From Callorhinchus milii (lineage: Eukaryota), in the NCBI RefSeq assembly GCF_018977255.1, contig NW_024704742.1, positions 73,162,001-73,226,000 on the forward strand: a stretch of DNA of 64,000 nucleotides, given 5' to 3'. The position numbers and the translations under genes are program-made. The notes beneath the pieces are model-generated. The model was not told where the DNA came from and did no database searches. It saw nothing but the letters and a program-made list of their open reading frames with translations. Positions 3,795 through 63,511 of the stretch are shown one piece after another. Each line of letters starts with the position of its first letter. The first letter of the stretch is position 1.

Positions 3795-4148
3795 GAGTCC
3801 TGTAGCTCAGGTGTTAGAGAGCACTCGCCTCGCAAACAAGAGACCTGGGTTTGATTCCCGGCAGGGCAAAACCTTGGGCAGGTTTCCTTACTCCACATGC
3901 CTGTTTACCTAGCAGTAAGTAGGACCTGGTGGATTGCTTTTTTGAGGGTAATAATTCCTTCAAAAGATTTTTTTAAAATAATAATAAATTGGTCACTCAC
4001 CGTTTGTGGGACACTGCTGTGTGCAATAGGCTGCCGCGTTTTGACCACAAAATATAGTCAATTCATTTTACAGTATATTCTGTGAAGCGCTTTGAGCTGT
4101 CTCGAAGACGTCATAAGGCGCTATATCAAATGCAAGGATTATTATTGT
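3795..4148 (+). mobile_element. tRNA-derived SINE, full-length copy
   Basis: A box TAGCTCAG and B box GGGTTTGATTCC, CORE-like ACCTTGGGCAGGTTTCCTTAC, Deu/L2-like 3' part, (ATT)n tail. Confidence 0.9.
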
Positions 4149-6974: not shown

Positions 6975-7291
6975 GTGGAGTCCTGTAGCTCAGTGGTTAG
7001 AGCACTCGCTTTGCAAGTGAGAGACCTGAGTTCAATTCCAGGCAGGGCGAAACCTTGGGCAAGTTTCCTTACTCCACACAGAGCCTAATAATAATCCCTC
7101 CAAAACAATAATAAATTGGTCATTTTCAATCTACGACTGTTTGTGGGACATTGCTGTGCGCAATTGGCTGCCGCGTTTGCCCACAAATATACAGTCAATT
7201 CACTTTACAATGTGTTCTGTGAAGCGCTTTGGGACGTCCTCCCGACGTAAAAAGCGCTATATCAAATGCAAGGATTATTATTATTATTACT
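6975..7291 (+). mobile_element. tRNA-derived SINE, full-length copy
   Basis: GTGGAGTCCTGTAGCTCAGTGGTTAGAGC head, B box GAGTTCAATTCC, (ATT)n tail. Candidate TSD ACTTTC at 6969-6974 and 7292-7297. Confidence 0.92.
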
Positions 7292-8279: not shown

Positions 8280-9080
8280 CAAAACTGGTTTATGCAACTT
8301 TATTAAGGAAAAACACAATGACGATGAGCTATTAGTTGATCAGTCTACCACCAACAGATTTGAATCATAATTCAGTGCCATGTAAAACAGTGCCGTGGAA
8401 AACAGATTAACTAATAGTTCTATTTTTTAAAAAAAGCATTACTTTAAGTGAAATTTACAAAATTATCTGACCTAGTTTTCTGGGAGAGGAAGGAAGATTG
8501 AGACAGTAAGTTCCACTTCTGTTTTGTGTAGAACCAACAAAAACCTTCAGTCACTCCTTTTATTAACATGCATAAAATACAGCATATATTTTAATTAATG
8601 CCGATACTATAACATTCAGCCAATCACAACCAATAACAAAGTTATGAGCATAAAGTAAATCATGGAAACTAAAATTTTATTTATCAAGGGAAAATGAAAG
8701 AAGCTGTACCAACACCACACCAATCTTTTAAGGATGGAGCTTAACTGCTGACGCATCCAATTTCATGTAAAAATCAGCACGTTGTTACAGCAATGAGGAA
8801 TGCATCATAACCAAGTTATTATGAGGGTACTGGCTACTTAACACATGCTCCATTTATAAAAGGTCAGAATTTCAGATGATTGATGAAACTACATTAGAAA
8901 TTCAGAAAGCTGGTCTTGTCCAAGCAGAAGTACATTGCCTTCTCATGAGAACATGTGGATTGGGAGTGGAGGGGGAAGGGGGCAAATATGTCTTACAAGG
9001 GGGCAGCCAAATAGGAAAACCAGAGAAAATCAGTAATTTAAACTTTATTCCAGCTATAATGTATTTCAAATTCCAAGGTA
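8280..9080 (-). other. UBE2D3: UBE2D3 3'UTR with several AATAAA signals (may extend to ~7650)
   Basis: Repeat-free AT-rich sequence after the stop codon. AATAAA on the minus strand at 9044-9049, 8676-8681, 8559-8564 and 8299-8304. Confidence 0.75.
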
Positions 9081-9126
9081 TCACATTGCATACTTCTGAG
9101 TCCATTCCCGGGCTATTCTGTTGTAC
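9081..9126 (-). CDS. UBE2D3: UBE2D3 canonical final coding exon 7b (K-YNRIAREWTQKYAM*)
   Basis: Acceptor cttctgttgcag. 46 nt to TGA completes a 444-nt ORF (147 aa). Confidence 0.97.
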
Positions 9127-10179
9127 CTGCAACAGAAGATAAAAGGAGTCATTAAAATTTGGTCACTTCAATTCAACCTTTTAAATATCTGAGATGAACA
9201 AAACTCAAAATGAACACAGGAATGATAGCAAACGCAATAGCACATTCAAGTGTCACTAAATGGTACCAGAGTTGACTTTGCAATCACAATTATCCATCTT
9301 AGCTGTATTGCAATAGCAATGGTGAGATAGTGTACATAAGCATCAACTAACTGGAGTGCATCATATTTCCCTAGACAAAGCAGATGGGGAGTAGGGAAAG
9401 ATCACCAGGCATAACTACACCTAAAATAAAACCTCACTGGGGACAAGTGGAAGTGAAAAACCCCAACCAGAGAGTAGGTTCAAAGCAATTTAAAATCAAT
9501 TAAAGCTTAACAATCAGTCACACTCAATTACAAGATGCAAAAATGTTTTGTGAAGTCAATCATGAAACCACCTGTAGCTTTCACCACAAAATTAGAGAAA
9601 ACAAATCTTTGAACTTGCCTACATTACACACAATAGAGTGGATCACCTTGTTCACAAATCTTCCCAATGTCATAAAAATTTTACAGCACAGAAGGTCCCT
9701 TGTGTCACGTTCTCATATCAATTTCAGAAAAGGGGACAGGCAATGTTTTTTAAAAAACAATATCCAGCTGTCTACACAGTCAATTTTAGTAAACACTTCA
9801 TCTTCTACTTATTTAATAGAGCAGGGACAAGCAACATTACTGGAAGGTAATTGCTGTAGTGTAATCAAATTCTATTGTTCCAGATGCCATGGGTTCTAAA
9901 GATCAAAAAGTACATGAAATGGTACACAGTTCAAAAAAGTGATTTGGCTTTAAAACCCATTCTACAATACCCCATTGCAATATGAGTAAAGACACCTACA
10001 TGACAGCACTGAGTCTTATAAATTAGGTGGTCAGTGTAACAACCAGTCTGTGCTGAGTTAGCATCCAGCTCTGCTATTACAATTGGCTTCACCATCTCTG
10101 CAGGGTGGTGGTGGGGGGAAAAAAGGGAGGGAATATTCTTAATTATTAAACATCCTACCGGAGGGTGCTTGTATAATGC

Positions 10180-10229
10180 AATGTTAAATCAGTTTAAACT
10201 ACAGGGGTAGTTTAAATTGATTTAACATT
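10180..10229. repeat. 23-bp inverted repeat, 4-nt loop
   Basis: AATGTTAAATCAGTTTAAACTAC-aggg-GTAGTTTAAATTGATTTAACATT, one G.T mismatch. Confidence 0.9.
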
Positions 10230-11304
10230 ATATTCCACAGATCAAGCATTCAGATCGCAAAAACAAAATGCCAAGTTAAAAACAACCATAGCAACACAAC
10301 ATGGAAATTGCTACAACTACTAGTACAATTGGCAATTCATGTCACTCCATTCATAAGTTACTAAGTTTGTTCAATTCAATGTTAAATTGAACTATGTAAA
10401 CAAAATAGCAAATATGCAAAATAAATAATCCCCAACTATTACTTATGCTATACCATCAGTTCTAAATGTATAAGCATCACACTGGAGTTCATAGTATCCT
10501 ACATCACTTTGCAGATTTTACATCTCATTGCAAACTTGAAATAAACTGACTGAAACAAAAGCTTTAGTTTTGCACAATTTCTGTGTTTCTACTCTGCATT
10601 ATACAAATAATTATTGAGACCGAAAAAAAGAGGGAAACAAAATTAAAGGCAGGAGAGGACTTTTTAAAAAGAATGCATTAAGAAAAATATATTCTGTACA
10701 TCAAGCCTGCCTCTTTCAGACCTACAAACTCTACTCCATCTTGATTTCACTCCACCCCAATAAGTGAGGAAAATATACTCCCCAAATCTCAAAGGTAATG
10801 AAATTTAAAACCTCCAGAATATTGTCCAATGCCCAATATTCAACCGTGGCAACATTACCCACTACCCCACCCCAACATAATTCATGTTGCTCCTGGAGTT
10901 GTCATTTTATCTTGCAACTATCTTTATATTCAACACTCTTCACAAGGAGTTAAAACTGTATCCGTTCCTTTTTTGTTGGAAGTCTTGTGACATATCTTCC
11001 TTAATTAGGAACAAGGGGGAGAAGGTAAGAAAATAAATGCAAAGCAATTTATAAACAAGTATTTTAACAACCAGTAAGGCATGCCTTACTGTCAGCAAGG
11101 GGAAAACATGGCAGAAACTAAACAGCATTGCAGAATTCATCATAAGCTCAAACATTCAACTTTATTTTGACAATTACATGCACACGTAAAAGATCTTCAC
11201 AGCTAAGAAATTAAACTGCCCTTGGCAGAATGAGCATGGCACCACATATTTAGCTCCTTAGGATTCTATACTTCATTTCCTAGAGTAGCATACTTTTAGA
11301 ATTT

Positions 11305-11690
11305 ATTTCAACAACAAATTACATTTGTATGGCGCCTTTCATGTTGGGAGGATATCCCAAGGCTCTGGACAGTCAGGGATTTGGACCAGAGCAGAGGCTT
11401 GGGATCAGGAGGGCTGCAGGGCAGGAGCTGTAGGGTGGCAAAGAGGAGGGTCTTGAGAGGCTGAAGGTCCGACCGCCGATGGTGGGGCAGGCCAGGCAGA
11501 GGACGTGGAGCAGGCCAGAGCCCGCTGAATGGAGGGAGCGGACAGGTTGATATGGAGTTAGCAGGTCATAGAGGTAGGAAGGAGCAAGGCAGTGGAGGGC
11601 TTTGAAGGAGAGGATGAGGATTTTGAACTCTATCCTCTCGGATATGGGGAGCCAGTTGAGGGTGATAGGGTCACAGAGCCCAGTGCGGGA
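11305..11690 (-). mobile_element. L2 LINE 3' fragment
   Basis: WLPISERIEFKILILSFKALHCLAPSYL. L2 tail ending in (TTG)n. Confidence 0.9.
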
Positions 11691-11974
11691 TAAATTGTTC
11701 AATCGAATAGAGTTCAAAAGAATCAAGATAGCTTAGTATTCTAGTATGGTAGTAGTTAATATTTTAACATGCACAGATCGAACATTTTCACCCCAAAGCA
11801 TCACTCGAAGTCCAAGAAAAAGCTTGTGAACACTTATTCTCACTCCTTCCCCGAGACATGCGCCCACTGGTTAGCTCAGACCCAATTATTCTGTACATCA
11901 TGCAGCACAGGGTTTAGTACAAAGTATTGCTTTTTGTGCATTAAACCTCAAGGTGCAAGCACCTTACCCAGGGC

Positions 11975-12023
11975 CTAGAGCATTGCATACTTCTCTGTCC
12001 ACTCCCTTGCTAGCCTGTTATAC
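11975..12023 (-). CDS. UBE2D3: UBE2D3 alternative final coding exon 7a (K-YNRLAREWTEKYAML*), 148-aa isoform
   Basis: Acceptor ctttaatag with a CTGAC branch-like motif upstream. Same phase as exon 7b, ends in TAG, with a gtaagg donor 7 nt after the stop. Matches the known alternative C-terminus of vertebrate UBE2D3 as recalled. Confidence 0.9.
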
Positions 12024-14164
12024 CTATTAAAGTTGATAAGTACAAAGTCAGGCCTACAGGTAAACAAATGCTTCTATAAATCAGTTTCTCCCAGTTCTGA
12101 AATGTTTTTTCAATCTAATTAGAAGAGTTCAATGGCAAGTTATGATACGGCAATCTCAAAAATCACTTACACAATTAGCTGTATTTTTATAGATAAATGG
12201 GCATTTACTCCACATAGTACTGTATACAAGTTTATTTAATTTTTTTAATCATTAGGTAAATTATTCCAAAACAAGTTAAGCAGCATATTTATTCAGCAAG
12301 TAGCTGAGTCATAAATACAATACTGTTTACATTTATTTAATACGGTTCACGTTGGTAGGATGTCTCAAAGTGCTCGACACTGCTAGTTGGGCATCCGAAC
12401 TGAAGGCGAGAGGCAAAGAGGATGGGGAGGGTAAAGATGACCCAAAGCTCTATCAAACAGAATGGTCAAGATGAGCTTTGAAAAAGGGGAGAGTGAGTGA
12501 GAGATTAAGAGCGGAATTCCAGAGAGCAGGGTCAGAAATGCCTGAAATCCCAGATAGGATAGGAATATGAATCAGGCCAGTATTTGCTGAACAAAAGGAG
12601 TAGCCAAATCAGTTGAGTTGAAGGAAGGATCTGAAGGAGAGAACAAAGACCTTGGATTTGATCTGCTGGGGAGTATGGAGCAGTGAACAAACAAACAGAA
12701 GTCTTTAGCACAGAAGGCCCTTAATGTCTATTTGTTTGCCCTTTTAATAATCCCATTTACCAGCTCTTCCCCATATCCCTAAATGTTTTTACAGATGGTC
12801 CCAGGTTCAATCTATACAGTTATCCATTCAGCCAGCAATGCAAGGTAGCAGCCATTGTTCCTTACTATTATTTTTTCTACCTCTGAAATATTACCCATTC
12901 CCCCCCTCAAGTGATGTGCATCGCTGCTGAAAGCCTCATTCAGGCGCTGGTCACCAAGAATAATCTCTTTAAAATGCTCTCCTGTCTAGCTTTGCTAGCT
13001 CCAACTCATCTAAACTTGACAGCCCATGTTCTCTCCCGCACTAGGCTCAATACTATCCCCAACAAGCAACATCGAATGCCAGAACTTCAGTAGACAAGAT
13101 CCTTGCCCTGACCTTCAAATCACCAGGCTCTCCTCTCTCTATGTAAGCAATCTCTTCTAGCCCTATTTTCTTGATTCCACCCTCACTCTTCTGCATCTGG
13201 TATATTGCTCATTCTTTCCCCAAAACGAAAAGACAAAACAATCTCATCTATCATTGACAGTGCTAAGTCTCCATCTCCAAGTCCTTGAACTATTTGATTA
13301 ATTTCTTCTTATTCCTAAAAACAATCCCTGTATAATATAAATGTAATTTGTTGTTATATATGATCAACATTCTCTTTTCCTGACCGATTAAACCTGTCAT
13401 GTACGTAAATGCAAGCACAAGTTATCGGTATACTGTAGAATACATGCTAATCTAAGTAGCCAAATACTTTGGCAAACTTATCTTGCCTTCACTTTAACCT
13501 CCATTGGGTCAGGGAGACAATCCAATTCTATGTCTCCATTGTAAAGTTTCCTATAGGGGTGCAAGATCATTGGTTAATTATCCTATAAAAACTGCAAGTC
13601 AAGCCTTGGGGCAGATTGGGCTTCATTATGTGGGAAATTGCTGAACAGATATCTGTTCTTACAGAAACACATATGAAGAACTGGCACAACCAATAGTCTC
13701 AATGTCTGCATCTGTAATCAGTCACCACTACAGCACATTAGAGCCATTCTTATTTGTGCTACTAAGGTGACTTAAGAAGTTTTGAGAAACCTGTTTTTTC
13801 AGGTGTAATTCATTCCATCCTTATACCATGCTTAATGACTTCATATTACACTTAACGTATTTCAGTGCCCAGATAGGGCTCTATCTGAGCTGCAGTGTAC
13901 AAAATGGCCACCTATCGTTAAATAATCCAAGAATCTAAATGCCCATCAGTAATGATCATCCTCCAGGTGAGATTAAACTTGACCAACGTCACTGGAGCAT
14001 TTATGCATACATGCATAATAATTGCAAAATTGCACCAGTTTACTAATTTCCCTGCATATGATGGGCCTAGTAAGACTGTATGCATTTTTCAATTCTTGTG
14101 CATGCACCCTTTTTTGCCAGTAGTGCAAAGGAAAGTTTCTGTTAACAACCAAGAGTGAGAGGTT

Positions 14165-21455: not shown

Positions 21456-21767
21456 GGAGTCCTGTAGCTCTGTGGTTAGAGCACTCGCCTTGCAAGCAAG
21501 ACACTTGGGTTCAATTCCAGGCAGGGTGAAACCTTGGGCAAGTTTCCTTACTCCACATGCCTAATAATAATCCCTCCAAAAAACAAAATAATAAATTGGT
21601 CATTTTCAATCCATGACTGTTTGTGGGACACTGCTGTGCACAATTGGCTGCTGGGTTTCACCCACAAATATACAGTCATCAATTCACTTTACAGCGTATT
21701 CTGTGAAGCGCTTTGAGACATCTAGAAGACGTAAAATGCACTATATCAAATGCAAGGATTATTATTA
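21456..21767 (+). mobile_element. tRNA-derived SINE, full-length copy
   Basis: Same head, body and tail as 6975-7291. Confidence 0.92.
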
Positions 21768-22208: not shown

Positions 22209-22328
<120 letters not shown>

Positions 22329-52675: not shown

Positions 52676-53254
52676 AAGGGTTAAATTGCTGCATCATTTG
52701 AGTTACTAAGACAAACGTTTAATATAAAAAATGTTAACAATTTTTTTATAGTGCCTTATATGCTGAAACAACATAAAGTGCTTGAGAATTTTTGTCTTTT
52801 TTTTAGACAAACATGGCAGTAATTTACACCAGGAAAAACAGGCTCGAGTGGTATCACTGATTCACTTGTCACTGATTCACTTGACAGGACACTTGGTGAA
52901 ACTCCCTTCTCTTTTCAATAGTGCAATAAGATCTCCAATAGAACAGTTTCCACAGTTTGACATCTCATTCTAAAGACAGCACCTCCAGCTATCAGTCCTC
53001 CCTAGTACTATACTGAGTATCAGCCTAGATTACAAGCTTAGTTGGCAGTGCATTGTTCATTCATTGTTCAAATGAACAAATATTTCATTTTTCAAGTACA
53101 TTAAGAAATGAGATATGAAGAAGCTTCTAGTAAAGTAAGTATAACAAATTAAGCGACTATGGAAATAAGGAATGTTGACAAAACCATAGTCAAAATGATA
53201 CATTTTAGGAGGATTTTGAAGGCAAGGAACAGAAGTAGTCCTGGAACGAGGTGT

Positions 53255-54570
53255 CACGTCCCAGCTCCGCTTTCTCTCTCCCCATTCCCTCTTTGAACCT
53301 CTCCAATCCGGCTTCCGCGCTGCCCACAGCACGGAAACAGCCCTGGTCAAAGTCACTAATGACATTCTGAACATCTGTGCTCAGGGCTCCCTCTGCCTCC
53401 TTGTCCTCCTCGACCTCTCTGCTGCCTTCGACACTGTCAACTATTCCATCCTCATACACCGCCTCTCCTCTTTACTCAATCTTCACAGACCTGCCCTTGC
53501 CTGGTTCGATTCCTATCTCTCTCACTGTCTCCACTTTGTTGCCTCTAACAGTTTCTCCTCCAGCCCCCGCACTGTCACATCTGGGGTCAACTTCCACATG
53601 TATGTGGATGACACCCAACTCTATCTTTCTACCTCCACCCTCAACTCCAGGACCACTGCTGTCCTGACAGACTGCCTGTCTGACATCAAGTCCTGGATCA
53701 GGGCAAATTTCCTACAGTTGAATGTGAACAAGACTGAGGCCCTCCAGATTGGCTTGCGCCAGTGCCTCAGCACCTCAGGCTCTGGCAGCATCAACCTCCA
53801 TGGTTGCACACGACAGCTCACCAAGCCAGTCAGGAACCTTGGTGTCTTGTTCAACCCTCAACTGTCTTTTCTCCCCCACATTCAAGCCATGACCCGCTCT
53901 GCCTTCCCTCACCTCCATAACATCGCCCGACTCTGCCACTACCTCACCCCTCAGGCCGCTGAAACTCTTGTTCATGCCTTCATCACATCCAGGCTTGCCA
54001 ATGAAACCCCCTGCTTGTCGGCCTTCCCAACTCCTCCCTCCACAGACTGCAGATAATCCAGAACTCTGCAGCCCGTGTCCTCTCCCGCACCAAACTCCGT
54101 GACCCCATCTCCCCCACTCTCGCCCGACTCCATTGGCTCCCTATCCTTCAGAGGATCCAGTTCAAGATCCTGGTCCTCACTTACAAAGCCCTCCATGGCC
54201 TCGCCCCACCCTACCTCTGTAACTTCCTAACCTCCTAAACCCTTACCAACCCGCCCACTCCCTCCGCTCAGCGCCCTCTGTCCTGCTCCACGTCCCCTGA
54301 CCCACCCGCCCCACCATTGGTGAGAGAGCCTTCAGCCATTCTGCCCCCAACCTCTGGAATTCCATCCCCCAATCACTCCGCCTCGTCCCCTCCTTAGCCT
54401 CCTTCAAGTCCCGCCTCAAGACCCTCCGCTTCGACCATCAGCCAGCCCCCTCCCCTCCCTTTCCGCCCCCCCCAACCCCAGCTCGGGTCTGAAATACTGT
54501 ACACTGTCCAGCGCCTTGGGACGTCCTCCCGACGTGAAAGACACTATACAAACGTAATCTCGTTGTTGTA
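53255..54570 (+). mobile_element. L2 LINE ORF2 RT-to-3' fragment immediately upstream of the CISD2 promoter
   Basis: QSGFRAAHSTETALVKV, DLSAAFDTV, MYVDDTQLYL and QNSAARVL. Tail ends CTATACAAACGTAATCTCGTTGTTG. Confidence 0.93.
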
Positions 54571-54599
54571 GTGAATTATGTCCACAATGACAATGATTG

Positions 54600-55300
54600 T
54601 GCGTAAATATCACTCCCGGCTCACTGTCACTCATATATTTGAAATTCCCGCCCTCTCTCTGCGCCGGCGCTGTGAGCCGCGCTCCAGCCCCAATGAGAAG
54701 CCAACAACTGGAGGAGCCGAACTGGTGGGGCCTCACTGCGCATGCTCGCTGCGGCACAGCAGGAGAGAGCGAGAGAGAGAGCGCGTGCGCGGTGGGGGGG
54801 GGGAGGAGCACCGCCCACGTGATTAGCCCCGGGCTGAGGGCTCGTGCAGGGTCCGGGGGGGCGGAGCCACCGGGGACAGAGTCAGTACTGATGCTCGAGC
54901 GTTGCGCCTGCGCACTGTGTGTGAGCAGAGTCGGGGGGGACGATGGTGCTCGACTCCATCGCCAGGATCATTAAAGTGCAGCTGCCGGCCTACCTCCGCG
55001 GCCTCCCCGTCCCCGAGACGCTGGGCGGCTTTATCCGGCTGACAGGTCAGACTGCACGGCACAGGCCGGGCCGGGCTCTCGGGGCGGGAGAGGGAGCGAG
55101 GGAGGGAGCCGGGGAGGGCGGCCTGTGGGAGGAGGCGGGCGGGCGGGCTTCAGGCCCCGCGCTTGGGTCGGGAGGCTGCCGAGCTGCGGGCCCTGTGGCT
55201 GGAGCTGTGCCGCAGCCCTCACTGGACTGTCGGTCCTCGCGCGGTCACTCCGGCCTGTGCTGGAGCTGTGTTCACTGGGGCTCTCTCTGCTCTCTGCAGC
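54600..55300 (+). promoter_or_regulatory. CISD2 CpG-island promoter
   Basis: CpG-rich. NRF1-type motifs TGCGCCTGCGCA (54903-54914), GCGCGTGCGC (54781-54790) and TGCGCATGCT (54737-54746). E-box CACGTG at 54816-54821 and CCAAT at 54690-54694. Confidence 0.8.
54943..55045 (+). CDS. CISD2: CISD2 exon 1 (MVLDSIARIIKVQLPAYLRGLPVPETLGGFIRLT)
   Basis: ATG in good Kozak context (ACGATGG). 103 nt to donor ag/gtcaga. Matches the CISD2 N-terminus. Confidence 0.95.
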
Positions 55301-56134
55301 CCAGTGCCGTTTGCATGGTTTTGCCCACAACACGTACAATCCATTCACTTCACAGTTTATTCTGTGAAGGGCTTTGAGTTGTCCAGAAGGTGGGATCAGG
55401 AGCCTTATCAAATGCAAGGATTATTGTCAATACTATAATCTCAGGAATGTCAGGTCCATTGCTCGGGGCTCCTCTGCACACACTTTGAGTGAACAAAGTG
55501 AAACTTATTTTTTTGTAAACGCCCGGAATCATCTATATTACTCCCATCTTAATTTCTTTCAAATCAGGAAATATAATTGTGTGGGTCTGTCTGTGGGAAG
55601 TGATGTGGAGAATTGACTGCAATCGGTTGTCAGGGTGAAGCTTCAGAGCAGAATTGTGTCCTTATACAAACTCGAAAATGATCTTGACGAGAAGAATTGG
55701 ACAGGATCCTTTTGCTTAGAACTTGTGACATGTCTTGCGCTTCCAATATGCCTGGGTTATAGTTTTTCCTTGCAGCCACTTTTGGCCTTATAACAATTAA
55801 GAAGCTCGCCATGTCTGTGCTTGAACAAGGCAACGTTTACGTGATCAGCGTTGTCACAAATCTGTCCAGTTCCCATTTGAAATCGCCGAGAAATCCAGAG
55901 TTCATTGGTGAGAATTTTCAATTTCTGGAGTGACCCAGTAGCGGTTATGGTGTTGCTTTGATACTGACTGAAGACACTAATTAAAAAAAAATACATTGTT
56001 GCAATCTTACAGAAAATTTCATTAAGCAACTTTATTTTAAAGTAATTTGATGTGTACCTGGCTGAACAAACCAGTTCAAAGTAGGGAATTTACTATAAAT
56101 ACAAATGTGACTGCAGTGTATAAAGGCTTCACAA

Positions 56135-56569
56135 GTGTATTCCAGGGCACTTCTGATGACAGCACAGCCATCCTGGCTCATCGGTAGGACCTAGAAGGGC
56201 AGACCAGTCACTGGGGGCAGGGAGCCCCAACAGGTAGGGTGGTCCTAGCTGGACAAGCAGCAGGAAAGTTTGCCGCCCATCAATATCAATAGCAAGCAAT
56301 GCAGTTTTAGCTGGTTAGACTCCAGCAGTACCCCAAAGCACATTCTGGGGTCCTCAAGTCTTGGCTCTTGCCAACCTGTGCCAAATACGTTCTGAAATCA
56401 GGTAAGCAGGATGCGTCCCTCCAGGGAGAGAGTGTGCATTCCATTCCAACCATCTAACTCTGGGATTTCCATGTGCAGGTGGGATGCACGAACTCGCACT
56501 TTGGTTTGGATACTCTTAAGCATGGTGATGGGTTTCCGCATGTGTCAGACACTCAGCTGACCNAAAAAG
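56135..56569 (+). repeat. Family X repeat copy (5' part missing)
   Basis: CTGATGACAG...GGTTTGGATACTCTTAAGCATGGTGATGGGTTTCC...CTGACCNAAAAA. Confidence 0.75.
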
Positions 56570-56736
56570 ATCTGTTTCATTCCTCGCTTTCTGCCATTGA
56601 CGCGCACCCAATTTCTTAGTGAATGTATGTATGTCTATCTCTCTGTCTCTTTCTCTTTTCATGCCACCAACTCTTTCAGTCCTTCTGTGATGTCCCCCTC
56701 ATCTCTCTCTTTGTTATTCTCTGTATCTCTCTCAGT

Positions 56737-58085
56737 ATAAGACTATAAGACATAGGAGAGGAGAAGGCCATTAGAGCCCTCGAGCCTGCCCTGCCATTTA
56801 ATAAAATCATGGCTGATCTTCTAACTTAATTCCATTTACCAGCCCTATCCCCATATCCCTTAATCCCTCTATCCTTCAAAAATCTATCAATCTCAGATAT
56901 TCCATCCATTCACTACCCTCTGAGTGAAGAAATGTTTCCTCAACTCAGTTTGAAAAGGCTGACCCTTAATCTTGAGCCTATGACTTCTAGTTTTAGATTC
57001 TCCAACCAGGGGAAACAGTCTCACGGCATCTACCTGGTCAAGACCCTTAACAATCTTATAGGTTTATATCACATCACCTCTAATTCTTCTATATTCTAGA
57101 GAATATAATAATAAAAAAAAATAGGCCTAGTTTATTCAACCTATCCTCATAGGTCAACCCCCTCATCCCAGGAACCAACCTAGTGAATCTACGCTGCACC
57201 CCCTCTAAGGCGAGTATTTCCTTTCTTAAATAAGGAGACCACAACTGCACACAATATTTTGGAATGTTGTACACTGTGCAGTGCCTTGGGACATCCTCCT
57301 GACATGAAAGGCACTATACAAATGTAATCTTGTTGTTGTAGGTGTGGTCTCACCAAGGCCTTATACAACTGGAGCAAGACTTCCCTACTCTTGCATTCTA
57401 ACCCTGTTGCAACGAACGCCCACATGGCATTAGCCTTCCTAGTTGGTTGCTGTACCTGCATGTTAACTTTTGTTACTGGTGTACAAGGACATCCAAATTC
57501 CTCTGAACACTAATAATACCTAGTCTCTCCCCCTCTAGAAAATAATCCGCTTTTCTATTTTTACTACCTCGGTGAATAACTTCCCCACGTTATACTCCAT
57601 CTGCCACCTTCTTGCCCACTCGCCTAGCCTGTCTATTTACCTTTGCATTCTTTGTGTGTCTACCTCACAGTTTACTCTCCCACCTGTCTTCGTATCATCT
57701 GCAAATTTAGATATGTTAAGTTCGATTTCCTCATCTAAATCATTGATCTAGACAGTAAATAATTGAGGCCCAAGCACTGATCCTTGTGGCACTCCACTAC
57801 TCACATCCTGGCAATCTGAGAAGGACCCGTTTATCCCTACTCTCTCTTTTCTTCCTGTTAGCCACTCTCCAATTCATGCTAACATATTACCCTTAATTCC
57901 ATGGGCTCTAATCTTATGCAACAGCCTTTTATGTGGCACCTTGTAGAATGTCTTCTGAAAATCCAAATACACCACATCTACTGTTACATCCTCAATAAAG
58001 ATTTGTTAAACATGATTTCCCTTTTGTACAGCCATGTTGACTCTGCCTAATCGTGTTATGATTTTCTAAGTACCCCACGACGACA
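56737..58085 (-). mobile_element. CR1 LINE fragment (RT to 3' end), interrupted by a short L2 tail at ~57255-57340
   Basis: YCVQLWSPYLRKEILALEGVQRRFTRLVPGM. tcatctgcaaa is the FADD motif reversed. Tail (CTTATAGT/CTTATGT)-like at 56737. Confidence 0.9.
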
Positions 58086-58369
58086 TCTCTAATTAATCTG
58101 ATGTGATGTGTCTGATGTGCTACTGACTTTTTTTCTATCACTCTTTCTGTATGTGTCATTTCCTCTTAAAATAAATGTGCCCATCGCTAACCCCTTCCTT
58201 GTCTTGGTCAGTCCCTTATCAGGCTGCTGTGTTGCTGAGGGAGGCAGGGAGGGGAGTTGAATCAACGGCTCGCTCAGGGAGAAGTTTCTGTACAGCACCT
58301 GTGCCATGTTATCTGTTGTCTTTACGAGGCAAGATTTAGCATTGTGGGATCCTTGGGATTTGGGACATT

Positions 58370-58620
58370 AAGATTCAGAAAGAGCACTGGGATTGCAACC
58401 ACTTGTGTTGAGCTTGTAGAATGTGCTAAAACAACAGTAGGGGTTCTACAATTGGCCTCAGTGCAAGAGATGACTGGAGTTCCTGCTCCTCATCACTATC
58501 CAGTGACACCTGCAGCAAAGTGCAAATTAAGTGCTTCATGAAAATGAGGAATGGTCATGTGGCAAGATACCAGAGGGCTTCTGGCACCTATGGAACTGTG
58601 CCCTAGAATAAGGGAGGTAA
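58370..58620 (+). mobile_element. Second old, diverged SINE-like family
   Basis: CTACAATTGGCCTCAG...GTTCCTGCTCCT...CACTATCCAGTGAC. Related diverged segments at ~10030-10170, 30880-31130, 35240-35520 and 41770/42710-42890. Confidence 0.5.
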
Positions 58621-59504
58621 GCAAGTTCCTATTAAATACAAATTAGCATTTACTTTCTTTATTTTAATTCTTATTTAAATGCATGTAATGTTGGCACTAA
58701 TTGGAATGGGATTTTGCAGTTAGTTTTTCTAGCTTCAGGCAATTTATTTTCATGGGGGGTGGGTGGGGGTGCGAAGCGAAGCAGGGGCTCTTTGGAACTG
58801 AACTGGCACATTCCATTCCAAACATGAGAATTTCTGTCTTTAGGTGGCATGCAGGATCTCGGTCTGGTTTGGATACTGCAATATAGTGATGGGTTTCCTC
58901 GTGTATTAGACATCCATCTGGTTGACCAAAAAAAAATTCAAATGGAAATAAATTCTATCTTTCTAAATTGCACTTTAAGGTCTTGACCTGTCCTCATCAC
59001 TCTTCCCTGAACTCTTTCCTTTAGAGATAATGATGTGTTTTTTCAGTCATTTTATCTAGAAGTGACCTCACCAGTGATCTGCATGATGTCTGAACAACAT
59101 TTTGACTTGTTGCCCAGATGCATCCCAGTACTTGACAACCCTAGTTAACTAATGGGCTCAGAGTGATGTTATGAATTCTTTATGTAATCTCTCTCCATCA
59201 CTGTGGCTTTCAGTCCATCTGAAGCAATACCTGCAGCCATTAGGTTTTTCTTTTCTAATATGAAATTATACTTTTTATTAAATCCTGTGAAGCTCAAGAT
59301 TGCTCTTGTCTAAGTAGATTTTGGAAACTTTGCAACCGAGCCTAAACTTTGCAACTGTGAAAATATCAGTGATTGTTTGTAATCTGAAAACTATTTTTGA
59401 TTATAAACCTTTCAGGAGCATTTTATGTAGCTGTGAAAAAGTTTTCAAAGAAATGAGAGTATTTTGTTTCTAGCTGATTCTGCAGTGCAAAGACTTGTTT
59501 GGTC

Positions 59505-60322
59505 AAGCAACCATACTTTATATTTATATAATCTAATGCCTTTCACTTCAGGAGGATATCCCCAAACACTTCCCACAACTGATTGGGGAGCCTGAGCTGG
59601 GGGAGCAAAGGAGGGGAAAGGGCTGAAAGCATGGTCAAAAAGAGGCTTAAGTGGGGGTGGCAGGGGCAGGGAAGAGACATAATGGTTGAGGTACATGATG
59701 TTGTGGAGGTGAGGGAAAGCAGCGTAGTGAACCCAGACGTAAGGTTTGAAAGGCAGTTAGGGATTGAACAAGATAGGTTTTTCTTAACAAAGACACTGAT
59801 TCCGCACCAGCTCAGAGGTGAAATGAGCACCTGTGCAGATCAATACGGAAGTACTGATGGGAGCCAAGCAGGAGAGCCTCTATCTTATTGACATTGAGCT
59901 GTGGAAAATAAGAACTGATCTAGAATTTGATGGCTGATTTGAGTTGGTTAGAACTGCAATGGTCCTGGAATCAAGGGTAGAGACAAGAGAGATAGATTTG
60001 GGTGTCATCCACATACCCTTGCCCCCAGATGATATTGAGTAGGAGAATATAGATAGTGAAGCAAGGACTGAATAGAAATTCCTAAGGAACATCATGTGTG
60101 ACTATGGGATAGGAAGAGAAGGATTTGGAGGTGAGAAAGTGAAGACATTGGGATAGGTAAGAGTGAAGCTAGGAAAGGACAGAGCTGTGGAGGTAAAGAA
60201 GGGAGGAGAGGTGATGCAGCAGTCAACAGTAATGATGGCAGCAGAGAGAGCCCTGGTGGAGAGAATGTCATTGGTGATTTTAACCAGGGCAAGGGCAGTC
60301 TCATTGGCATGGGAGGATCAGA
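59505..60322 (-). mobile_element. Old L2 LINE fragment(s)
   Basis: Degenerate MWMTP/YxDD-region sequence, ETALAxVKITND-like segment and L2 tail. Confidence 0.65.
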
Positions 60323-60498
60323 CGCTGGTTTGGAGAGACTCAACAACAACTTGCATTTATATGCTGTCCTTCAAGTGGGGTGTATCCTGGAATGCAATTG
60401 GAGAGACTCGTAGTGTGAGGGGAAGGAGGAAGCAGGAGATGGAGAACATGTATGGGTCCAATGAGGGTTCTTTGAGAAAGGGGTAATGCTACAAGGAG

Positions 60499-60845
60499 AT
60501 AATAATAATACTTGCATTTGATATAGGGCCTTATTATGTCTGTCTCAAAGCGCTTCACAGAATATACTGTAAAGTGAATTGACTGTATATTTTGCGGGTG
60601 AAACGTAGTAGTCAATTGTGCACAGCAATGTCCAACAATCAGCCATGGATTGAAATGACCAATTTATTATTTTTTTTGAAGGAATTATTACCCCCGGAAA
60701 AGCGATCTGGGTTGCTACTTACTGCTAGGTTGACAGAGACATGTGGACTAAGGAAACTTGCCCAACATTTCTCCTTGCCGGAAATCAAACCCAGGTCTCT
60801 TGCTTGCGAGGCGAGTGCTCTAACCACTAAGCTACAGGACTCCAC
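60499..60845 (-). mobile_element. tRNA-derived SINE, full-length copy
   Basis: Reverse complement head GTGGAGTCCTGTAGCTTAGTGGTTAGAGCACTCGCCTCGCAAGC and (ATT)n tail. Confidence 0.92.
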
Positions 60846-62871
60846 AGTACTTCTTTACAGGTACTGTGAAAGGTTGATGATGTCACCTAGCAAGGGAGCG
60901 AGGAGATGAAGCTGGACGGACAGGAACAGTGTGAGAATAAAATCAAGAGAACAGATGATGGGTTTCATCCAAGAGGTGAAGGGGAGACTGAATCAAAGTT
61001 GGAATAATCCTTGCGTTTGATATAACTCTTCATGTTGGGAGGATGTCTCAAATCTCTTCACAGGATTTACTGTAAAGTACAGTGACTGTATTTGTTGGCG
61101 AATGTGGCAGCCCATTTGTGCACAACAATGTCCCACAAACAGCCATGAAGTCAGTGACCAATTTTATTTGGGAGGCTGATGACCAGCGCAACGGAAGAAA
61201 CTCCCTTTTTTCAAATAATGCCACAGGATCTGTAATTTTCCTGTGAACGGGCAGACAGGACCTCAGTTTAACATTTCATCAAAAGGACAGTCGGTACCTC
61301 TGAGAATGCAGAGCACCCCCAGCACTGCATTAGAGTGTCAGTCTAAAGTATATGAGTTGAAAGCCCCGGGTTTGAACCCTCAACCTTCTGAAGTTGTGGA
61401 ATGAGGTCTGACTAGGCTTGGGGAGGGTTCTGGTGGAGGTAACTGAGCTTGATTTTTGCCTTTAGAAGTCTCATCATGGACACCAAGCAGTTCATTATTA
61501 ATGTATCTTCACTTACACCAAGCAATTTTGAGCTTCATACAGAAGTTTGCTACGTTAAAGATATTGAGACTGCACCCAGTCACATTGTAAATTTCAAGAA
61601 GACTTTAATTAGAACAGGGATATATCTTACTTTGGTTAATAAAGATGCATTAAATTTAAATAAATCGTGGCTTATTTTAAAAAAAAGTGTTGCAGGGCCT
61701 TGAGCAAAACAGTTTAAAATTCAAATTCTGTTATCTCACGGCTGGCCTAGCAATTAAACAACGTTGCTGTTCTGGGAAGATCTTGGCTAGGTCCTATTAT
61801 AGGCAGAACCCGCACTAAAAACTTGATGGTGTTTTGTGTATGCAAAATTTTGCTCCGAAATGTGTAGCCTTTTTTCAAATGGATTGCTGGTGTAATGACG
61901 TAGAGTATTTATTCAGAATATCAAGGTTTTTTTTTAACATGGAAGATAATGCCATTTTAATTTGTGATTTTGGTGAGGTCTTATCTAGTTTCAACAGAAT
62001 TTTCTTTCTTTTTCTTAGCAATTTCTATTCCAATATTCTTGTAGTAATATGTTGTGAGAAACATTCTGATTGAAACTTTCTTGTATTGCTTAGCTTTGAA
62101 CTGCTGTTTACTGCTCCATTACCAGAAGTGAGCATTTTTCTTTGTTTTCCTGCCAACATCCATAATTCTTTTGGGACTTTCCAAAATTGGATCTCTTTTC
62201 ATCCAGTTCAGTACTCGAGATGAAGCATTTTGCGATGTCCAACTGCACAAAGATAAAACAAGAATGTTAATACTGTGCTTGTTTAATCTGAGGGACTGTT
62301 GTTTACTGCTCGTTTTACCCAGTGATACTCAAAAATGTGTGTGTATGGACAGCAGATTGATCAGATTTGCAATCTACTGCCCCCTCCTCCCCATCAAGTA
62401 GCTCTATTTGATATCTAAGCACTGGAGGATAATTAGCATCTGTGAAACCATTTCTTAATGTAAGACAGTGCCTTCAAGAAAGAGAAAACTTTAATGCTTT
62501 TTGAAAACTAGGGCTCTTGAATAGATTTGTCTGAGTGATGAACTTGTAGAGGTATATGAGATACTAAATAGGATTGAGCTAGTAAACCCAGAACATTACT
62601 TTTAGATATGTAAAGGGCAGGATAAGAGGACATAAGGTTCATGCTTGTGAAGGGCAATTTTAGAATAAAGCAGTGAAGTATTTCTTTATCCAAAGGGTAA
62701 TTAACAGCTGGAAGTTTGGATGCTGTAGTTGTTTNAAAAAAAGTTTGATTCTGCAATGAAAAAATTGTAGAATATAATAGAATATAATCTAAAAGGAGGT
62801 CAAATGAGCAGAAGGCCTTTGTCCATATTTCTTGCGATCTTGTTTTTTTTACTTATCTGACTATAAAAGTA

Positions 62872-63210
62872 CTGTATATGCAGAGGGAGCATATAGATAT
62901 AGAAGGGGACCAAGGACAGAGCCCTGAGGAACGCCGCACGAGACTGTGCGGGGGCTAGAGGAGAAGCCATTTGTGGAGATGAAGTGGAGGCGGTGTGAGA
63001 GGTACGATCTGAACCAGTCAAGGACAAAGCCGTGAAGGTCGAGGTAAGAGGAGAGGCGGTGGATGAAGATAGAGTAGTCGACGGTGTTGAAGGCAGCAGA
63101 GAGGACGAGGAGGCACAGGGAGCCCTGGTCACAGATGGACAGAATTTCATTTGTCACTTTGGCCGGGGCTGTTTCTGTGCTGCGGGCGGCACAGAAACCT
63201 GATTGGAGGG
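62872..63210 (-). mobile_element. L2 LINE RT fragment near the CISD2 exon 2 acceptor
   Basis: PLQSGFCAARSTETAPAKVTNEIL...SAAFNTVD...[12 protein letters not shown]. Confidence 0.88.
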
Positions 63211-63296
63211 GTAAAACATAGTAAGCAGACATGCCTGCTTCTTAATTCTTCTATTTTATCACTGTTTCTAATTAAATCTTCTTCTGTGGTCTACAG

Positions 63297-63511
63297 TTGT
63301 AGAATGGTTACGATTACTGCCTTTTCTTGGAGTTCTTGCATTGCTTGGATACCTAGCAATTCGGCCCTTCATTCATCGAAAGAAACAACAGAAAGACAGC
63401 TTGATTAATCTAAAAATTCAGAAGGAAAATCCCAAAGTGGTAAATGAAATAAACATTGAAGATCTGCATCTCACCAAAGCAGCCTACTGCAGGTGTTGGC
63501 GCTCAAAAACG
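63297..63511 (+). CDS. CISD2: CISD2 exon 2 (VEWLRLLPFLGVLALLGYLAIRPF...KAAYCRCWRSKT): TM helix and first two Cys of the CDGSH motif
   Basis: Acceptor ggtctacag and donor gtatgt. 215 nt, in frame with exon 1 (318 nt total). Exon 3 (FPACDGSH) is outside the window. Confidence 0.97.

Follow-up and report, generated by a model that had tools for sequence, protein, structure and literature searches.

We analysed a 64,000-nucleotide (nt) window of the Callorhinchus milii genome (contig NW_024704742.1, positions 73,162,001 to 73,226,000; all coordinates below are positions in this window unless a contig is named), which carries a minus-strand gene of the UBE2D family with two homologous last coding exons, 7a and 7b. 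Its first six coding exons lie at 36876-36853, 34244-34181, 31526-31495, 31412-31335, 23431-23326 and 22303-22210, the intron ends are all GT-AG, and exon 5 matches the Pfam family UQ_con. About 18 kb upstream, exons 1 and 2 of CISD2 lie on the plus strand at 54925-63500; this divergent, head-to-head neighbour matches MitoNEET_N and scores 95.6 bits against CISD2 compared with 48.2 bits against CISD1. Human UBE2D3 lies beside CISD2 as well. The C-terminus encoded by exons 6 and 7b is that of the elephant-shark row in Table 1 of PMC7306689 (Roman-Trufero et al. 2020, Mol Biol Evol), a sequence common to gar, frogs and lamprey, and the distance from ATG to stop is 27,796 nt here and 28,258 nt in the elephant-shark gene of that paper. 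The UQ_con match, the CISD2 neighbour, and the fit of C-terminus and span to the elephant-shark entry indicate that the host gene is UBE2D3 and not another UBE2D. The fit of C-terminus and span also supports a chondrichthyan host, which a first-pass annotation of the window had raised as a possibility.

Exon 7a sits between exon 6 and exon 7b and matches 7b in phase (Table 1). Joined to exons 1-6 it gives a protein of 148 residues, compared with 147 for 7b; the two forms differ by I137L, Q143E and an added L148, and both keep Cys85 and Ala138. The exons share 35 of 43 coding nucleotides, with five of the eight differences at third positions (local BLAST E 1e-6). That 7a is a duplicate of 7b with these three changes was already proposed in the first-pass annotation, and the exon coordinates given there are exact.

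Table 1 Features of the alternative 3’ end of UBE2D3 and of the intron that follows exon 7a.
Feature	Position	Strand	Remarks
Exon 6	22210..22303	minus	94 nt; phase-2 donor; joins 7a or 7b
Predicted RNA hairpin	12009..12057	minus	intron 12057-12036 pairs with 12027-12009
Exon 7a	11968..12023	minus	56 nt; peptide YNRLAREWTEKYAML*; stop TAG at 11975-11977
5’ splice site of 7a, TGG|gtaagg	11962..11970	minus	6/9 consensus matches; six constitutive donors 5-8
TGCATG, intron +64	11899..11904	minus	motif scan
GCATG, intron +107	11857..11861	minus	additional to the first-pass annotation
TGCATG, intron +195	11768..11773	minus	motif scan
3’ fragment of dispersed non-LTR (long terminal repeat) retroelement family	11309..11690	minus	382 nt; matches at ~15 other places
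AATAAA	11302..11307	minus	adjoins retroelement tail; downstream A-rich, unfavourable for poly(A)
TGCATG, intron +786	11177..11182	minus	motif scan; +404 with the repeat discounted
AATAAA	11161..11166	minus	upstream TGTA; T-rich downstream element (46% T)
Exon 7b, coding part	9081..9126	minus	peptide YNRIAREWTQKYAM*; AATAAA in 3’ untranslated region (UTR) starting at 9049, 8681, 8564 and 8304

The exon itself has been described before. PMC7306689 (supplementary methods) names a UBE2D3 exon 7a and prints its peptide with one extra C-terminal residue, which is described as a lysine yet printed as L. Our 7a peptide is identical to the amniote one printed there, and the gene and the place between exons 6 and 7b are the same, so that we regard the two as the same exon with near certainty. 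In that paper 7a serves as a vertebrate-wide marker of UBE2D3: it was checked in all tabulated vertebrate genes except Anolis, only axolotl and medaka-b are named in the available text as lacking it, and it is a minor exon without expression in mouse embryonic stem (ES) cells. With elephant shark and lamprey among the tabulated genes, the duplication and its age were already on record, as was the Ala138 residue, and novelty for either the duplication or Ala138 is ruled out. The first-pass annotation had read Ala138 correctly in both exons and, should the host be a chondrichthyan, had placed the duplication before the bony-fish split; the lamprey entry makes it older than that. The amniote-specific Ser138 of the main isoform is the subject of PMC7306689 and of a review (PMC9790923), and the S138A change raised the UBE2D3 level about threefold in mouse ES cells and was apparently lethal early in mouse embryos (PMC7306689). 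In the accessible parts of PMC7306689, 7a is treated as a marker only, and its donor, tissue pattern, RBFOX words and RNA structure are not discussed.

Ancient duplicated last exons are also a catalogued class (PMC8373072, Martinez Gomez et al. 2021), and 7a and 7b show its features: they are homologous, lie in tandem and have a common splice phase. There, 77 of 236 human substitutions derived from tandem exon duplication are C-terminal, and 84% of all cases were present in the shark-human ancestor, while 62% go back as far as lamprey. The age of the 7a duplication is thus typical for the class, and homologous alternative last coding exons are found in both; UBE2D3 is not named in the main-text passages of that study. 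Among the five PDB alignments listed of 86 matches, the 7a peptide was absent.

We searched for orthologues of 7a in other sequence collections. Neither the genome collection nor the viral one gave any, and the full 7a pattern matched no metagenome stretch. A shorter pattern returned eight rows on seven metagenome loci, six of which were rejected as 7a orthologues: they end in ...KYAM* without the 7a leucine and belong to unrelated UBC4/5-like genes. All orthologue comparisons here rest on a single contig, L003, a compact teleost ube2d3 gene with exons 5, 6 and 7a, whose exon 6 ends in KTDPV like the spiny-rayed-fish ube2d3-b rows in the table of PMC7306689. The 7a peptide of L003 is identical to that of the window, with six synonymous and no non-synonymous differences. 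Exon 6 shows two amino-acid changes in 30 codons, and the 7b of this lineage has 60% identity to human across the C-terminal 20 residues (PMC7306689). Upstream of 7a, at 1070-1180, L003 also has what looks like a strong acceptor (CTAAC, pyrimidine tract, CAG|G). The frame that it opens runs for 27 codons and bears no relation to exon 7; it may be a decoy or an exon specific to that lineage.

The geometry of the 7a stop and donor bears on how the exon would be used. The stop ends 7 nt upstream of the donor, the distance given in the first-pass annotation, and the sequence agrees with the stop-carrying cassette proposed there. Stops within 50-55 nt of the last junction do not trigger junction-dependent decay. 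Since the 7a stop is inside this limit, transcripts spliced 6-7a-7b are predicted to escape nonsense-mediated decay (NMD). In every transcript with 7a the stop comes before 7b, so at most one of the two homologous exons would be translated from each such transcript. The donor directly after the stop equals the constitutive donors of the gene in quality (6/9 consensus matches), which favours a cassette, and in L003 a donor lies 2 nt past the 7a stop, which supports the same geometry. We hold the cassette mode to be probable.

The alternative is that 7a is mainly a terminal exon that ends at the distal AATAAA (11161-11166), and that the neighbouring TGCATG affects which poly(A) site is chosen. 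Both AATAAA signals listed in the first-pass annotation are where it put them. The one at 11302-11307 we rejected as a likely poly(A) site, since its downstream sequence is A-rich and it abuts the retroelement tail, and this half of the proposed terminal-exon option is weak. With its upstream TGTA and T-rich downstream element, which resemble those of the first two 7b UTR signals, the site at 11161-11166 is the better candidate should 7a be terminal, and minor terminal use is possible. L003 too has a TGCATG followed 45 nt on by an AATAAA. Set against this, two AATAAA in the 900 nt after 7a are at chance level (P 0.14), the UTR would have to cross the retroelement, and the donor kept directly after the stop in both species would be needless for a pure terminal exon. 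Furthermore, intronic poly(A) sites that lie close to a strong upstream donor are usually suppressed. Most human duplicated C-terminal exons are described as chosen by alternative polyadenylation (PMC8373072), in which respect the donor after the 7a stop, suggesting a cassette, sets this gene apart. On balance we consider predominant terminal use unlikely. In both the window (11161-11182, minus strand) and L003 (1906-1956), TGCATGTAA is followed by AATAAA within 50 nt, about 400 nt after 7a with the repeat discounted; this shared arrangement may be chance.

Past the 7a donor the intron carries a group of RBFOX-type words (Table 1), with a further GCATG at +884. The three TGCATG elements stand at the positions reported in the first-pass annotation. 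TGCATG is not enriched across the whole window (36 observed, 48 expected), and the background in the introns of the gene is 10 in 27.3 kb. Two occurrences in the first 200 nt past the 7a donor have a Poisson P of 0.002 and were equalled in 1.3% of 3000 dinucleotide shuffles; three in 800 nt have a P of 0.001, reached in 0.9% of 3000 local dinucleotide shuffles. Three GCATG in 200 nt, a window size chosen post hoc, occurred in 0.5% of shuffles. No TGCATG occurs within 300 nt after any of the other six donors of the gene. The stretch after 7a is the sole 800 nt on either strand of the window with three TGCATG, and it is one of two places in the window with three GCATG in 200 nt. The retroelement fragment, missed in the first pass, lies between the TGCATG at +195 and the one at +786, with both AATAAA on its far side, so that we are dealing with a proximal group and a single distal site rather than with one cluster. 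Two extra TGCATG about 90 nt apart lie 2 kb upstream of 7a, at 14010-14106 on the minus strand.

The proximal group is where RBFOX-activated exons carry such words. In mouse muscle with lowered Rbfox1, TGCATG is most frequent 70-90 nt downstream of the exons whose inclusion drops (PMC3536703); the first motif after 7a is at +64. In the map of that study RBFOX-activated muscle cassette exons are weak alternative exons with (U)GCAUG within about 200 nt downstream, as is the case for 7a. Exons of that class are marked by RBFOX binding, dependence on RBFOX and conserved sites; 7a is a candidate member by its sequence words. From motif position and enrichment, RBFOX regulation of 7a is plausible, and we lean towards a real contribution of RBFOX to 7a inclusion.

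The acceptor of 7a (taatag|G) is weak. It has 10 pyrimidines in 16 positions, and its longest run, of four, is the shortest among the seven acceptors of the gene. It also falls in a predicted RNA hairpin that buries the acceptor AG together with some of the pyrimidine tract and leaves a candidate branch-point A (12048) bulged. The fold of the region from -40 to +20 has a minimum free energy of -21.8 kcal/mol (z -3.9), and 2 of 500 shuffles were equally stable. So were 4 of 772 GC-matched, AG-centred windows of the gene, which are the 7a acceptor itself and three at one other spot. Stem pair probabilities exceed 0.9 in contexts up to +/-300 nt. The unusual folding is confined to the acceptor hairpin, as the 381-nt region as a whole has a z of -0.4. 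We treat this predicted hairpin, which is new in this analysis and was found after the fact, as a regulatory lead.

These elements suggest a model in which 7a is a stop-carrying cassette, predicted to escape NMD, that is switched on probably in muscle with the help of RBFOX; we give it a probability of roughly 0.55. Because its acceptor is weak and folded into the predicted hairpin, 7a would be skipped by default, with the hairpin contributing in this species. RBFOX bound at the (U)GCAUG words at +64, +107 and +195 would favour the 7a donor, and inclusion would probably take place in muscle. When 7a is included, 7b would turn into 3’ UTR, which would make the two last helices mutually exclusive in the protein.

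Several observations weigh against this model. The window sizes for the motif counts were picked after the motifs had been seen, so that the statistics are post hoc. In L003 the first 250 nt past the donor hold no GCATG, and one TGCATG lies at +368, which is at chance level (P 0.17). A comparison across species had been proposed for these sites, and in this sole teleost orthologue the proximal ones are missing; for the regulation, this orthologue thus lends no support to the earlier claim of an origin before the bony-fish split. Flanking introns align unconvincingly with those of L003, three of four comparisons being at shuffle level and one at 2% without motifs. L003 also lacks the hairpin (z -0.3), and the constitutive exon 2 acceptor of the window gene is also folded, if more weakly (z -2.8). 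The 7a acceptor of L003 (7a region 1480-1545) reads AT, not AG, which may reflect a decayed copy or loss in a paralogue, or an assembly error. No 7a event was found in the searched supplements of four studies of Rbfox loss or low Rbfox: PMC4541041 (no match for 7a in the files searched, with one file outside the search), PMC8881802 (no match), PMC3536703 (a gene-level UBE2D3 row and no 7a row) and the zebrafish rbfox-mutant table of PMC9534849 (among the rows listed, only another exon pair, at a false discovery rate of 1). UBE2D3 is likewise unmentioned in the main texts of PMC2995044 and PMC4465641. Our literature search found no work on 7a regulation or on UBE2D3 splicing by RBFOX, although subscription papers or supplements of RBFOX crosslinking and immunoprecipitation studies may list the exon.

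A further counterpoint comes from myotonic dystrophy type 1 (DM1), which indicates MBNL rather than RBFOX, although it speaks for the muscle part of the model. PMC5399563 lists human 'UBE2D3 exon 10' with the validated splicing defects of DM1 skeletal muscle, and UBE2D3 is also in the gene list of a study on DM1 splicing (10.1101/728881). By exon count, 'exon 10' is likely to be 7a. Both would then be an alternative UBE2D3 exon regulated in skeletal muscle; DM1, where MBNL is sequestered, implicates MBNL, whereas the 7a flank has RBFOX words. We therefore considered whether 7a is a regulated cassette whose inclusion is set by MBNL, QKI or other muscle factors, with the GCATG cluster minor or lineage-specific, as its proximal part is missing in the teleost. 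The word YGCY is that of MBNL and ACTAA is a QKI-like word. ACTAA stands at +50 and +231, compared with an expectation of 0.23 in 250 nt, and L003 has one at +161. However, an MBNL-type YGCY cluster was rejected, since three per 250 nt on each side compared with 2.6 expected is background, and the GCATG words form the window's densest cluster, in the activating position. We judge this explanation to be rather unlikely, and retain RBFOX-assisted inclusion as the preferred one.

It could also be that 7a is a vestige hardly ever used in this species, with the motifs there by chance. In favour stand the weak acceptor with its predicted pairing, the change at this site in L003, and the failure to find 7a in axolotl and medaka-b (PMC7306689). 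In contrast, both 7a splice sites are intact here and the peptide is identical in amniotes, the window and the teleost, where silent changes have accumulated without replacements. We think a vestige very improbable.

If the regulated cassette is real, its likely effect is an altered surface at the end of helix alpha-4, where E143 would stand beside K144, near the backside-bound ubiquitin. K144 is a frequent modification site close to the C-terminus of the backside-bound ubiquitin (PMC8946176); Q143E and L148 may accordingly adjust how chains are built or how K144 is modified. In amniotes, 7a inclusion would drop the Aurora B site Ser138. Since both exons encode Ala138 here, 7a cannot originally have served to evade phosphorylation at Ser138; in amniotes such evasion would be a by-product. 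We also entertain, tentatively and with some doubt, a two-part switch in which the hairpin locks the 7a acceptor and RBFOX unlocks it in muscle, yielding a UBE2D3 with a last helix unchanged from cartilaginous fish to mammals while the main exon has drifted (Ser138 in amniotes, hypervariable in spiny-rayed fish). Were this true, amniote muscle would gain an Aurora-B-proof, more stable ubiquitin-conjugating enzyme (E2), and loss of 7a in myotonic dystrophy would have consequences for protein turnover. UBE2D3 is a hub E2 of which 7a provides the natural Ala138 form in amniotes, and a splicing switch for 7a, if true, would place tissue-level control on ubiquitin signalling. Candidate control elements at the locus are the +64, +107 and +195 words and the acceptor hairpin. 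As the exon and its age are already known, the motif cluster and hairpin are a modest, testable regulatory addition rather than a surprise.

A few other features were noted. A 33-bp inverted repeat with a 4-nt loop lies at 10170-10239, in the intron between 7a and 7b. The retroelement family inserted after 7a corresponds to the 3’ end of a decayed non-LTR retroelement at 53220-54577 on the plus strand, with an RVT_1 frame at 53220-54056. An Rfam scan gave nothing but a tRNA-like match in intron 6. Matches resembling tRNA-Ala at 3796-3869, 6980-7049 and 21458-21529 (plus strand) stand in or beside dispersed repeats and are likely heads of tRNA-derived short interspersed nuclear elements. Finally, an unrelated low-GC eukaryotic contig (L004) carries a UBC4/5-like 3’ end in two copies about 1 kb apart, at 209-238 and 1240-1269.

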